DNA from: Candidatus Gastranaerophilales bacterium
GTDB taxonomy: Bacteria; Cyanobacteriota; Vampirovibrionia; Gastranaerophilales; Gastranaerophilaceae
Reading direction: 5' to 3'
Assembly: GCA_910587815.1 (NCBI GenBank)
Contig: CAJUNK010000013.1
Coordinates: 11,481 to 75,480 of the forward strand
DNA length: 64,000 bases
Part shown: positions 3,008 through 5,364 of the stretch, in pieces
Numbering within the stretch: the first letter of the stretch is position 1
How the letters are laid out: each line of letters starts with the position of its first letter
Made by a program: the position numbers and the translations under genes
The notes under the pieces: generated by a model
What the model was told of the DNA's origin: nothing
Seen by the model: only the letters and a program-made list of their open reading frames with translations
Databases searched by the model: none

Positions 3008-3760
3008 CTAATAATTCTTAATTAAAAGTTCCTTGTATTCTCTGCCTTTCGGGCAACAACCATTTATTCCCTTAAGCCTTGAAACCTCAATAATATAAAA
3101 GCCCTTATAAAGCTTTCTGATTGATTCTGAATCATCATAAGATAACAAGAATTTTCCTTTAATATTCTTTAGTGTTTCAGCCAGTTTTTCATGTTCAAAG
3201 TCCTTTGTAGAGCAAACCTCGTAACCTTCGCCCTTTGAATATGGTGGGTCAAGATAAAAGAAATTTTGTCCGTTATCATAGGTTTGAATTAAATCAAGAG
3301 CATTCTTATTCTCTATATTAACCTTATCAAGCCTTTTTGAAATCTCCATAACTCTCTCTATTATGCCCCCTGCAGATTTAACTCTGACAGCATATGTTGT
3401 TCCTTTTGCACCAAAAGAATAATTAATAACATACAAAAACTGTGCAGCTTTTTGAATATCCGTAATGCCATCAAAGTTAAGCTGTTGTTCAAATTGTGTT
3501 CTGCTTGATAACATATAGCACATTTGACGTGCTAATTCACACGGATGATACTTAACGACGTTGAAAAGGTTTACAAGCCTGTTATCAAGGTCGTTATAGA
3601 TTTCTAATTCCGCCCATCGTTCTTTATAAAATAATACCCAGCCCCCGCCACCAAAGGGTTCAATATATCCTTCAATATCTTTAGGGATTAATTCAGCGAT
3701 TTTCTTTCTTAAAAGACGTTTCCCGCCAATCCAAGAAATTAAATATTTATATTTATTCAT
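3008..3760 (-). CDS. N6-adenine DNA methyltransferase, D12/Dam class
   Basis: N-terminal WIGGKRLL and EPFGGGG (AdoMet binding) plus DPPY catalytic motif (FFYLDPPYSKGEGY). Last gene before the phage end, the position mom occupies in Mu. Confidence 0.85.
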   Translation of the reverse strand: MNKYKYLISWIGGKRLLRKKIAELIPKDIEGYIEPFGGGGWVLFYKERWAELEIYNDLDNRLVNLFNVVKYHPCELARQMCYMLSSRTQFEQQLNFDGITDIQKAAQFLYVINYSFGAKGTTYAVRVKSAGGIIERVMEISKRLDKVNIENKNALDLIQTYDNGQNFFYLDPPYSKGEGYEVCSTKDFEHEKLAETLKNIKGKFLLSYDDSESIRKLYKGFYIIEVSRLKGINGCCPKGREYKELLIKNY

Positions 3761-3784
3761 AATTCAGCTACCTTTCTTAATTTT

Positions 3785-3793
3785 TGATATGAT
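3785..3793 (+). promoter_or_regulatory. candidate extended -10 promoter element TGaTATGAT
   Basis: TG-n-TATGAT read directly. It would start a + strand transcript near 3800, exactly where the GC-rich island begins. No good -35. Confidence 0.3.
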
Positions 3794-3800
3794 TTTTATG

Positions 3801-3970
3801 TGGGGAGCGGATTTTGGCGGGGCGTGGCAGGCGAAGCCGAACGCTATCTGTGAACAGCCTGTTGAAGGCTGTGAACCCGCAATAATCCAAGACGGCTATG
3901 GTACTATAGCTATTCCCATAGTAGTTGCCGCTGTTATGGGAACTTGGGGCGAAAGCCCCTTGCCTGCTTC
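3801..3970 (+). ncRNA. candidate structured RNA (GC-rich, hairpin-dense island); strand tentative
   Basis: 38/60 G+C in 3801-3860 inside AT-rich DNA. Hairpins: ACAGCC-7-GGCTGT (3854-3872), GCTAT-6-ATAGC (3895-3910), CCCATA-14-TATGGG (3915-3940), GGGGC-GAAA-GCCCC (3946-3959; GNRA loop only on the + strand). The 89-aa track ORF here has no RBS and an implausible composition. Confidence 0.35.
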
Positions 3971-4068
3971 ACTTTTAAGTATCAATGAATGCAAATACAG
4001 CACAGTATATATATTCAATTTTCAATGTTCAATAAAAAGTAATTTAAACCCGCATTAATTGATGTTTA

Positions 4069-4089
4069 AAACCCTGTTAATACGGGTTT
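4069..4089. terminator. bidirectional terminator-like hairpin AAACCC-9 nt-GGGTTT
   Basis: A second AAACCC at 4046-4051 can pair with the same GGGTTT. U-rich sequence follows on both strands. Confidence 0.3.
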
Positions 4090-4140
4090 GATTATTAAAT
4101 TGTTAAATATCAAATATGATAAATGTCAATATGCAATGAA

Positions 4141-4305
4141 TTATCGTTTAGCTGATATCAAACATTCAGTGAAGAATATGAGTATAATTCCATTTATACC
4201 TCCAATACAAAGTGCAATATTTGATTGGGTAAAACAAAATACAAATATTGCAATTATGCAGAATAGAAAATTAATGGAATAACATATCCAAAAACTTTTA
4301 TTCAT
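4141..4305 (-). CDS. 54-aa two-helix hydrophobic protein (holin/lysis accessory, or type I toxin-like)
   Basis: Below the track's apparent size limit (smallest listed ORF is 60 aa). ATG 4305-4303 sits 10 nt after the amidase stop, preceded by AAAGGA. Translation: MNKSFWICYSINFLFCIIAIFVFCFTQSNIALCIGGINGIILIFFTECLISAKR. Confidence 0.5.
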   Translation of the reverse strand: MNKSFWICYSINFLFCIIAIFVFCFTQSNIALCIGGINGIILIFFTECLISAKR

Positions 4306-4315
4306 TCCTTTTCAC

Positions 4316-4852
4316 CTATAACCTTTCTAAATACCACTGCACCTTCCCTCGGATATAATCCCCCACTCCATGGGCTGCAAGGTTTGGTTCATATGGAATA
4401 AAATTAATATCAGGCTTTCCTTTTGATTCTGTCTTTGGATTTTGTATACCAAATTCATAATGAGTTAATACAGTTATTGGAGATATTACTATTGCATATT
4501 TTTTACATAGTTCAGCACATAGTTTAAACATTTTTTCAAACTGAATCTTTTGTAATGGGTATTTACCTTGATTGGATGGAGATTTAAAACCTGCATTACC
4601 ACATAAGGCTATACCTATACTTCCTGTATTACCTCCTCCTGTATGTGCTGCATATTTACCATCATAACAGTTTAGATTATCTTCGGGTTTACAGATTCCA
4701 TTTTTGACATTAGCTGCTCTGTGCTGCTTATCATACTCTATCAGATAGTGATAATGTGCTTTTTCACCTTCATTTGGGGTGTATGTGCCAGCCGTCCAAT
4801 GCAGTATTATTCTTTTCATTTTTCTTAAAGTCCTTTCTGTGCTTTTATCCAA
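4316..4852 (-). CDS. endolysin, N-acetylmuramoyl-L-alanine amidase (Amidase_2/PGRP type)
   Basis: ILHWTAG...AHYHYLIEYD...AAHTGGGNTGSIGIALCGN resembles T7-lysozyme-type zinc amidases. Confidence 0.8.
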   Translation of the reverse strand: MDKSTERTLRKMKRIILHWTAGTYTPNEGEKAHYHYLIEYDKQHRAANVKNGICKPEDNLNCYDGKYAAHTGGGNTGSIGIALCGNAGFKSPSNQGKYPLQKIQFEKMFKLCAELCKKYAIVISPITVLTHYEFGIQNPKTESKGKPDINFIPYEPNLAAHGVGDYIRGKVQWYLERL

Positions 4853-5132
4853 TGTTTGGCATTACATAATTTTTATTTATTCTGTAATCAGCACATTTTT
4901 CTATGGCTTTTTCAATAAGCCCATCTGCAAGCTTTATAAGGCTTTCGCGAAAGAATGGAATCAATGGTTTTAGATAAATTGGAAGCTTTGATAGTAAAAA
5001 ATCTATAGCCATTTCCTTTTTTACGGCGCCTGTACCCTCACCTAATAAATCTTCAGCATACCTTATTGCTTTCTGTACTAAGTTTTTAAAACATTGATTT
5101 GCTTTTTTGATAATAATTTCTTTAAATTTCAT
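4845..5132 (-). CDS. small helical protein upstream of the endolysin (LL-H-holin-like region, no clear TM)
   Basis: EGTGAVKKEMAIDFLLSKLP resembles the conserved soluble part of LL-H-family holins. Overlaps the amidase start by 8 nt. Confidence 0.4.
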   Translation of the reverse strand: MKFKEIIIKKANQCFKNLVQKAIRYAEDLLGEGTGAVKKEMAIDFLLSKLPIYLKPLIPFFRESLIKLADGLIEKAIEKCADYRINKNYVMPNIG

Positions 5133-5172: not shown

Positions 5173-5364
5173 ATGTTGGAAGTTTTTAAATACGGCAAAA
5201 AAGTTGATATACCTTGTTTTATATGTGATGCACCCGCTAATTTTGATATTCATATAACATCGCATAATGGCGCGTTTACAAACATTAATATTTGTGGAGA
5301 ATGCCTTAAAAAGCTAAAACAAGAATTTGAAAACTTTGAAATCCCGGCAAAGATTAAACTTTAA
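5173..5364 (+). CDS. possible zinc-ribbon protein (CxxC-22-CxxC), opposite strand to the late operon
   Basis: 63-aa ORF filling an otherwise 228-nt gap: CFICDAPANFDIHITSHNGAFTNINICGEC. No convincing RBS. Confidence 0.35.
   Translation: MLEVFKYGKKVDIPCFICDAPANFDIHITSHNGAFTNINICGECLKKLKQEFENFEIPAKIKL

Follow-up and report, generated by a model that had tools for sequence, protein, structure and literature searches.

A covarying four-way-junction RNA predicted upstream of Dam methylase genes in Gastranaerophilales phages

The window studied here is a 64-kb stretch (64,000 nucleotides) of contig CAJUNK010000013.1 and holds a P2/Mu-like prophage of a Candidatus Melainabacteria (Gastranaerophilales) genome. 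In it, a gene for a Dam-like D12-class N6-adenine DNA methyltransferase (Dam; 3008–3760, − strand; Pfam PF02086, E = 2e-28; PHROG 56, DNA methyltransferase, E = 4e-65) is separated by 555 bp from the gene for an N-acetylmuramoyl-L-alanine amidase endolysin (4316–4852, − strand; Pfam PF01510; PHROG endolysin, E = 4e-32), with which the recognisable part of the lysis cassette ends. The gap between the two holds a G+C-rich island, and the question is what this island encodes and how it relates to its neighbours. A sequence-only reading of the locus had offered three answers: a structured leader controlling the methylase, an antisense RNA to a small hydrophobic toxin, or a new phage non-coding RNA. 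It is the third that has stood up, with a conserved covarying fold, a promoter motif on the + strand and no match in Rfam. The island is a real structured small RNA gene of a previously undescribed family. Its structure is selected on the + strand, opposite to Dam, and the RNA gene and Dam form a mobile, head-to-head two-gene module.

Fold, relatives and strand of the RNA

In 100-nt windows the G+C content is 58% at 3800–3899 and 23–38% in the flanks. A count for 3801–3860 gave the 63% that had been read there before, in AT-rich surroundings, and 3800–3970 as a whole is at ≈55%, compared with 33.5% for the 64-kb window. The + strand between 3795 and 3975 folds at −74.0 kcal/mol (z = −3.69), a value that none of 200 shuffled sequences equalled.

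Relatives were gathered by following the Dam protein through a collection of 5.8 billion proteins and then fetching the encoding contigs. Sixteen sequence variants of the RNA, all from phages of Gastranaerophilales, were found upstream of D12-class Dam genes (≈62–97% identical). A contig of a mouse-gut metagenome-assembled genome (MAG; L054) has the same intergenic sequence as the window and a Dam that is 97% identical. A second prophage variant (L049, the same as L055), with a Dam 89% identical to that of the window, keeps the promoter, the three hairpins, the flanking GTGGG...CCTGC and the downstream terminator described below, and is without 87 nt of the most GC-rich part. Beyond these, the architecture recurs before Dam genes 62–85% identical to the window's, often with a very different primary sequence. 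The module was found in mouse gut, human gut and goat duodenal assemblies, these being the only three samples with an identifiable host.

The conserved core is a perfect four-way junction of ≈95 nt, in which a closing helix, P1, and three hairpins, H1, H2 and H3, meet with no unpaired linkers. In the window P1 is formed by GUGGG (3800–3804) and CCUGC (3963–3967), a pairing given by the family alignment and by RNAalifold; the fold constrained to this closure is at −72.8 kcal/mol. P1 covaries among the relatives, where it appears as GUGCAGG/CCUGUAC, AGGG/CCCU or UGCUGU/ACAGCA. The sequence-only reading had instead closed the island with GCAGGC and GCCTGC. The GCAGGC does exist (at 3827–3832, one base off the 3828–3833 that it had given), but the closure itself has to be abandoned, as it yields −67.1 kcal/mol and has zero ensemble probability. 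It competes with the fold of a lineage-specific arm, at a cost of ≈6 kcal/mol relative to the family-type P1.

Hairpin H1 (3894–3911) has 7 bp, counting G.U, and a GUAC loop, and extends by one pair the stem that had been listed at 3895–3910. It is paired in 100% of 14 sequences, with double-sided changes in two pairs and one-sided changes (G.U to A-U or G-C) in three. H2 (3913–3942) is longer than the perfect stem formerly placed at 3915–3940; it has 13 bp, three of which are G.U pairs, and 11 of the 13 show double-sided compensatory changes. Its loop, UUGCCG in the window, is conserved and reads UUGCCG, CUGCAA or UUGCAG across the family; the loops of H1 and H3 are not conserved. H3 (3943–3962) consists of a closing C-G pair, two U.U mismatches and GGGGC-GAAA-GCCCC (3946–3959), and its 3′ end is a conserved UUG abutting P1. 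Four of its five modelled pairs have double-sided changes, and RNAalifold adds the closing pair (C-G/U-A) with three compensatory cases. The GNRA loop that had drawn attention here is present in the window, but its place is taken by AUUUU, UCUU or UAUUC in relatives. A fourth listed stem, at 3854–3872, is also present (6 bp, ACAGCC/GGCUGU), so that all four stems of the earlier list are real, one of them less perfect than described.

This fourth stem belongs to an extra arm of 89 nt (3805–3893, + strand, 57% G+C) inserted at the P1/H1 junction, where it takes the place of two nucleotides and turns the four-way into a five-way junction. Taken alone, the arm folds as a three-way junction (−35.3 kcal/mol) with closing stems GGAUU/AAUCC and GCGGG/CCCGC and the hairpin at 3854–3872. 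It is limited to the phage of the window, being missing from L049/L055 and from every other member of the family, and a comparison with the other members and with the remainder of the window gave no significant similarity. Hence the segment richest in G+C, the 5′ part of the island on which the emphasis had lain before, is a lineage-specific insertion outside the conserved core. Smaller expansions of H3 are seen in L058 and L069. The mouse MAG iMGMC-526 holds both variants of the module, with the arm in L054 and without it in L055, which reflects either two related prophages or two strains binned together.

Between the window and L049 all substitutions in H2 are neutral to pairing, with double changes from C-G to U-A and from A-U to G-C and one change from G.U to A-U. 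Covariation was counted over alignment A5, comprising 14 distinct sequences, 33 pairs and 462 pair cells. Standard pairs occupy 92.9% of the cells, as against 78.3% in shuffled alignments and 33–50% with slid partners. Double-sided changes occur in 20 of the 33 pairs (10.3 ± 1.7 when shuffled, 5–10 when slid), and the covariation score is 0.526 (0.240 when shuffled); neither value was attained in any of 500 shuffles. As the sequences are related and A5 was fitted to the model, these figures are strongly indicative and not formal probabilities. RNAalifold returned the same four helices for the family, with a covariation term of −7.06. Compensatory changes thus exceed both the shuffled and the slid controls, and the stems are conserved and covarying in the homologous intergenic regions, where the sequence-only reading had proposed to look for them.

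Covariance models recovered the fold from sequences that had not been used to build them. A model of 11 hand-collected sequences (R1) found L099, L110, L113 and L115 outside its seed, in the expected place and orientation and with E = 5e-11 to 5e-18. A second model (R2), built without the window, retrieved the window as its sole match (45.4 bits, E = 5e-8 in 277 kb) and, with filters off, the very divergent L114 at 22.8 bits, which has UGCUGU/ACAGCA instead of GCAGG/CCUGU in P1. Searches at the DNA level returned little: the 555-bp gap had no blastn match in 50,697 GenBank phages, two DNA-pattern scans of viral contigs gave only the known L049 contig plus chance matches, and a pattern informed by the structure retrieved nothing from viral contigs and, from the metagenome collection, a single human-gut contig that was already known. 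A first metagenome scan with the Dam alignment gave nothing. In L116, where Dam is 61% identical and the head genes around it are Mu-like, a weak partial match of 13.7 bits (2325–2417 of that locus, − strand) precedes the Dam gene. P1 and H1 can be seen in this match, as can an H2 of 12 bp with the loop UGACCG; H3 is missing, and the match was not counted as a member. It may be a three-way-junction relative of the RNA family.

The strand on which the structure is selected can be read from the wobble pairs. Over the 462 pair cells there are 52 G.U/U.G and 10 A.C/C.A combinations, a ratio which shows that the structure is selected on the + strand, opposite to Dam. Covariance model scores agree with this orientation (52–94 bits forward, 22–40 bits for the reverse-strand mirrors). 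Both observations bear on the structured-leader proposal, by which the element would be a sense-strand 5′ leader of the Dam mRNA, either riboswitch-like or protein-binding as in Mu com/mom. That the element stands directly upstream of Dam in every case fits such a leader, as do the hairpins of the − strand (−62.6 kcal/mol, z = −3.85 for the island) and reverse model scores that are above zero. Read on the Dam strand, however, the 52 G.U would leave ≈11% A.C mismatches, the forward scores exceed the reverse ones, the extended −10 described below points away from Dam and is spaced to P1 and not to the Dam ATG, and no Rfam riboswitch matches, the SAM and SAH classes included. What survives of the leader proposal is the methylase as conserved partner; the sense-strand leader itself, with wobble pairs and promoter both oriented the other way, we consider improbable.

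The same strand asymmetry would be meaningless for duplex DNA and hence argues against a DNA-level element such as a set of operator palindromes or a site for recombination or packaging. H1 does have an invariant palindrome in its upper part (CAUA...UAUG), and palindromic operators also "covary" between their half-sites. Unlike operators, though, P1 pairs and covaries between segments ≈90 nt apart (160 nt in the window), and a promoter stands at a fixed distance from it. We regard a DNA element as a slighter prospect still than the leader.

Could the island instead encode a protein? An 89-codon open reading frame (ORF; 3789–4058, + strand) is open in the window and partly so in L049, and the two differ in length by 87 nt, which is divisible by three. 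In L049 the frame is nevertheless shifted by an indel of 1 nt in the loop of H3, and in six members of the family none of the six frames is free of stop codons over the element. The ORF has neither a Shine-Dalgarno sequence nor a Pfam match, and its substitutions track base pairing, not codon position. We rejected the ORF as a spurious by-product of the G+C content; the chance that the island is protein-coding is negligible.

Rfam 15 (4227 models) gave no match at gathering threshold in the 64-kb window, no match on the element at E ≤ 10 (3600–4450) and none at E ≤ 1 in six homologous loci. A scan of this kind had been called for by the sequence-only reading, and no known RNA family matches the element. 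The tRNA model RF00005 matched only a separate tRNA in L069, off the element, and ARAGORN found no tRNA genes in the 64-kb window. A literature search for a prior description of the RNA returned nothing relevant.

Promoter, transcript ends and linkage to Dam

A putative extended −10 of the small RNA, TGATATGAT, is located at 3785–3793 on the + strand, just where it had been noted before, and its predicted start, G3800, is at the edge of the island and is the first base of P1. The corresponding family-wide motif, TGnTAnnnT, is found 5–7 nt before P1 in 14 of the 16 variants, and the other two have TATGTT and TATAAT. For L099 the scan also gave a −35 (TTGCCT-18-TATCAT with TG). The distance to Dam is less constant, with 33–85 nt from the start of the model match to the Dam ATG across the variants and 15–45 nt from the −10 of the RNA to the Dam start codon. 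Since the −10 is fixed in spacing to P1 and variable in spacing to the Dam ATG, the promoter belongs to the RNA.

At the other end, a U-run after P1 (3973–3976, + strand) is the likely 3′ end of the RNA; most relatives in the lysis context have runs of 4–7 U within ≈15 nt after P1. Further downstream a bidirectional terminator-like hairpin (4046–4092, both strands) is composed of an A-tract, a CCC..GGG stem and a T-tract, with a second AAACCC copy upstream. Its + strand pattern match covers 4073–4086 plus TTTGATTATT, and the upstream A-tract gives TTTT on the − strand, so that the sequence pattern predicts Rho-independent termination on both strands. The hairpin is kept nearly base for base in L049/L055 only. 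The two AAACCC copies (4046 and 4069) and the single GGGTTT (4084) are as read earlier; a switch between the copies, suggested at the same time, found no evidence.

This terminator and 160 nt separate the RNA core from a 54-codon hydrophobic ORF (4141–4305, − strand) that comes from the ORF list and is unsupported as a gene. The ORF does begin 10 nt after the amidase stop, as had been pointed out, but its supposed link to the RNA fails, as it is missing from every other RNA locus. Among the loci examined, tblastn matched it only in the same phage; the collection of 5.8 billion proteins contained no homologue of the 54-aa peptide, and neither Pfam nor PHROG gave a match. The AAAGGA once taken as its ribosome-binding site abuts the ATG, and AGGTGA, 6 nt upstream, is a more plausible Shine-Dalgarno sequence. 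In L049, the nearest relative, its slot is occupied by a 53-aa ORF of the LuxR/GerE helix-turn-helix (HTH) type (3586–3747, + strand of that locus).

A type I toxin-antitoxin system, with the + strand RNA as antitoxin of the convergent ORF, had been proposed from the convergent geometry and the two-helix hydrophobic peptide. Neither a conserved hydrophobic toxin nor an overlap between the RNA and a toxin mRNA could be found, given that the RNA core reaches to 3967 and the 4046–4092 terminator lies between it and the end of the ORF at 4141. The conserved neighbour of the RNA is Dam, and we think it most unlikely that the ORF and the RNA form such a pair. The ORF may encode a lysis accessory protein or nothing. 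In L113 a GerE-family gene directly follows Dam, and there may be a loose association between the module and a small HTH regulator.

In all 16 variants the RNA gene is placed and oriented alike with respect to Dam, and the variants fall into two unrelated contexts. In context (a), which includes the window, the module comes after the lysis cassette at the end of the prophage. In context (b) (L073–L078, L114, and L115) Dam is found upstream of the terminase genes, and the element occupies the space between Dam and an intrinsic terminator of Dam sense. L099, a viral contig on which no genes were called, has the same terminator-element-Dam layout. The element was found in none of 48 viral contigs picked by amidase homology and is thus not a feature of the lysis cassette. 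As it follows Dam into a second context, the RNA gene and Dam are a two-gene module. In L061 the gap between endolysin and Dam is reduced to 135 nt, and with 99 nt for the element and ≈34 nt for its promoter region it is full, which means that any Dam promoter overlaps the RNA gene or its promoter.

Some further observations concern the surroundings of the module. A motif of three TTGAAnn units with 7-nt spacing, TTGAACATTGAAAATTGAA (4014–4032, − strand), overlaps a promoter-like TTGAAC-17-TATACT directed toward Dam (4032–4004), and is conserved in all relatives of the lysis context (L049, L058, L064, L068, L069, L110, and L113), where it follows the lysis genes and precedes the RNA gene on the map or the reverse. 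The −10 of this site is not conserved and the scan of L064 reads the motif on the other strand; the repeats may serve Dam as a −35 region or regulator-binding site, or they may be a promoter of the + strand. In L069 a tRNA gene (4315–4386) lies ≈550 nt beyond Dam, which fits a module at the very end of a prophage integrated beside a tRNA.

Upstream of the amidase gene in the window, a 95-aa ORF (4845–5132, − strand) has a weak match to a holin PHROG (E = 1.6e-4) and is 73% identical in L049, whose endolysin is a different, non-orthologous enzyme; this points to an exchange of modules inside the lysis cassette. Encoded against its neighbours, on the + strand, a 63-aa ORF (5173–5364) has a CxxC-X22-CxxC arrangement and the look of a zinc ribbon, which we take to be reminiscent of the Ogr/Delta late activators or of Mu Com. 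It has a weak match to a PHROG family of unknown function and no Pfam match. As it is conserved, and co-occurs with the element, in the L049 lineage only, it was rejected as a Com-like partner.

Possible roles beside an orphan methylase

What might the RNA do? Our preferred reading, to which we give an even chance, is that 3785 to ≈3977 (+ strand) is a stand-alone small RNA (sRNA) gene in the upstream region of Dam that exerts negative control on Dam in cis. The regulatory effect on Dam, the transcription itself and the 3′ end of the RNA are each probable, as far as can be judged from sequence. Transcription would start from the extended −10 (3785–3793) at about G3800, and the RNA would fold as the four-way junction and end at the 3973–3976 U-run or at the terminator at 4073–4092. 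Expression signals or the 5′ leader of Dam would overlap the RNA gene on the other strand, and Dam transcripts arriving from upstream, by read-through of the late operon or from an upstream promoter, would contain the exact complement of the sRNA. Pairing between the two might then lead to degradation or a block of the Dam transcripts, and polymerases from the sRNA promoter might collide with Dam-directed transcription or occlude it. The geometry is that of a countertranscript, with a predicted promoter of the RNA's own that is opposite to the linked gene and within its upstream region.

Several points weigh against control in cis. Transcription of the RNA is a prediction, and the covariation statistics behind the fold are not formal probabilities, as stated above. 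No consistent candidate for a Dam-sense promoter upstream of the element was found in four relatives, and the overlap of the RNA and Dam transcripts is therefore deduced from geometry only. In context (b) there is no U-run after P1 on the RNA strand. The Dam of L072 (69% identity, inside a tail operon) is without the element, which means that Dam does not need the RNA, and so are more distant Dam genes with 47–63% identity to the Dam of the window or to the P0010/P0024 query relatives. YUNR U-turn loop motifs are typical of fast-pairing antisense RNAs, and the loops of the RNA have none. Conservation is instead highest at the junction and in the H2 loop, which suggests a specific three-dimensional fold or a protein partner.

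The conservation of the junction and the H2 loop, the missing YUNR and the missing Dam-sense promoter together make a trans-acting, protein-binding RNA that is co-inherited with Dam a serious rival. Such an RNA would bind a protein or a target of host or phage, for instance as an anti-defence decoy, as a regulator of host genes in the lysogen or as a partner of the Dam protein, and travel with Dam as a "moron" cassette, with no control over Dam expression. Invariant junction nucleotides and an H2 loop of UUGCCG or CUGCAA beside freely covarying stems are typical of RNAs that have a defined three-dimensional fold or a protein partner. Expansion arms are tolerated, both the 89-nt insert and those of H3 in L058 and L069; the module sits between terminators in both contexts, and the end of a prophage is where cargo genes expressed in the lysogen are common. 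A trans RNA would, however, have no need of the strict head-to-head spacing with Dam that is kept in two contexts; no candidate target or partner was found, and the conserved single-stranded stretches (5–6 nt) are too short for a target search. We rate this possibility as real and less likely than control of Dam in cis.

Two other ways of connecting RNA and Dam were considered and rejected. Trans pairing of the conserved loops with the ribosome-binding region of Dam has in its favour a 7-bp match in the window lineage that is not conserved in L064-type loci. A methylation-sensitive promoter switch would need GATC sites, and there is no GATC within 260 nt upstream of Dam in 14 loci.

The methylase itself has no close annotated relative among 50,697 GenBank phages (tblastn, best 46% identity), and its nearest annotated relatives are DpnIIA-like GATC methylases (39% identity). 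The 64-kb window contains 15 GATC sites, 153 being expected from a trinucleotide Markov model. This ratio of 0.10 is well below that of the next most depleted 4-bp palindrome (CATG, 0.42), and the depletion is found alike in the prophage part and in the flanks. Next to a Dam-like methylase this is notable, and it suggests that restriction directed at GATC exerts a strong pressure on the lineage. A more speculative proposal, which we consider rather unlikely, is that the RNA keeps a phage GATC-type methylase silent, or binds and gates it as an RNA "antitoxin", or else is a trans-acting anti-defence partner of Dam. If true, it would mean that Dam activity is dangerous or strategically timed in a host that avoids GATC almost completely.

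Relation to known RNAs and significance

For control of Dam in cis the closest parallels are the countertranscript RNAs ColE1 RNA I, R1 CopA, IS10 RNA-OUT and lambda OOP. Like the RNA of the window, these are small (≈100 nt), structured, untranslated RNAs with a constitutive-looking promoter of their own, encoded opposite a linked gene in its upstream or leader region. ColE1 RNA I also has three hairpins, but a perfect four-way junction closed by P1 is found in the window RNA only. The window RNA further differs from the countertranscripts in that its loops are without YUNR, its overlap with the Dam transcript is putative and its partner is an orphan phage DNA methylase.

Reverse promoters and antisense RNAs are known to control methylase and restriction genes through polymerase collision and pairing (PMC12707154). 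The reverse-promoter RNAs of EcoRI and Eco29kI are, like the RNA described here, antisense to a DNA-modification or restriction gene (PMC12707154). They arise inside coding regions, however, with no conserved covarying structures reported (PMC12707154), whereas the window RNA is intergenic and conserved. Another difference from these systems is that the Dam of the window is an orphan, with no restriction gene seen nearby.

Among structured regulatory RNAs of phages, C4 of P1/P7 and the CI RNA of P4 share a closing stem and conserved hairpin loops with the window RNA. C4 and CI RNAs act on immunity genes and are released from longer transcripts by processing. The window RNA differs in having a predicted promoter of its own with the +1 at P1, in being linked to Dam and in giving no match to the Rfam C4 family at E ≤ 10. 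Mu com/mom works through a hairpin of the sense-strand mRNA and the zinc-finger protein Com. Its theme, the tight and dedicated post-transcriptional control of a late-region DNA-modification gene that could do harm and stands at the end of that region, is one that the Dam module may share; the window RNA is on the opposite strand, though, and no Com homologue co-occurs with it.

The tRNA cloverleaf also consists of a closing helix and three hairpins in ≈95 nt. The arms of the window RNA are different (7–8, 13 and 5–6 bp, with loops of 4–7 nt), and it has no 7-nt anticodon loop, no T-loop and no CCA. A tRNA, a riboswitch, a com/mom-type leader and a type I antitoxin have each been rejected for the element on the evidence of ARAGORN and Rfam, of the strand or of the ORFs.

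In kind the element resembles the countertranscripts and the phage immunity RNAs, and by the tests made it is a member of neither. We regard it as a new RNA family, in which a structured small RNA encoded by a phage is coupled with an orphan methylase. The family is uncatalogued and comes from phages of uncultured Gastranaerophilales, the non-photosynthetic gut relatives of cyanobacteria, and to our knowledge almost nothing is known of phage regulation in this group. The extreme avoidance of GATC gives the module a concrete biological question. If the RNA controls Dam, it would be a compact example of RNA-based control of epigenetic or anti-restriction functions in phages; should it act in trans, it would be a candidate for a new functional RNA with a defined four-way-junction fold.

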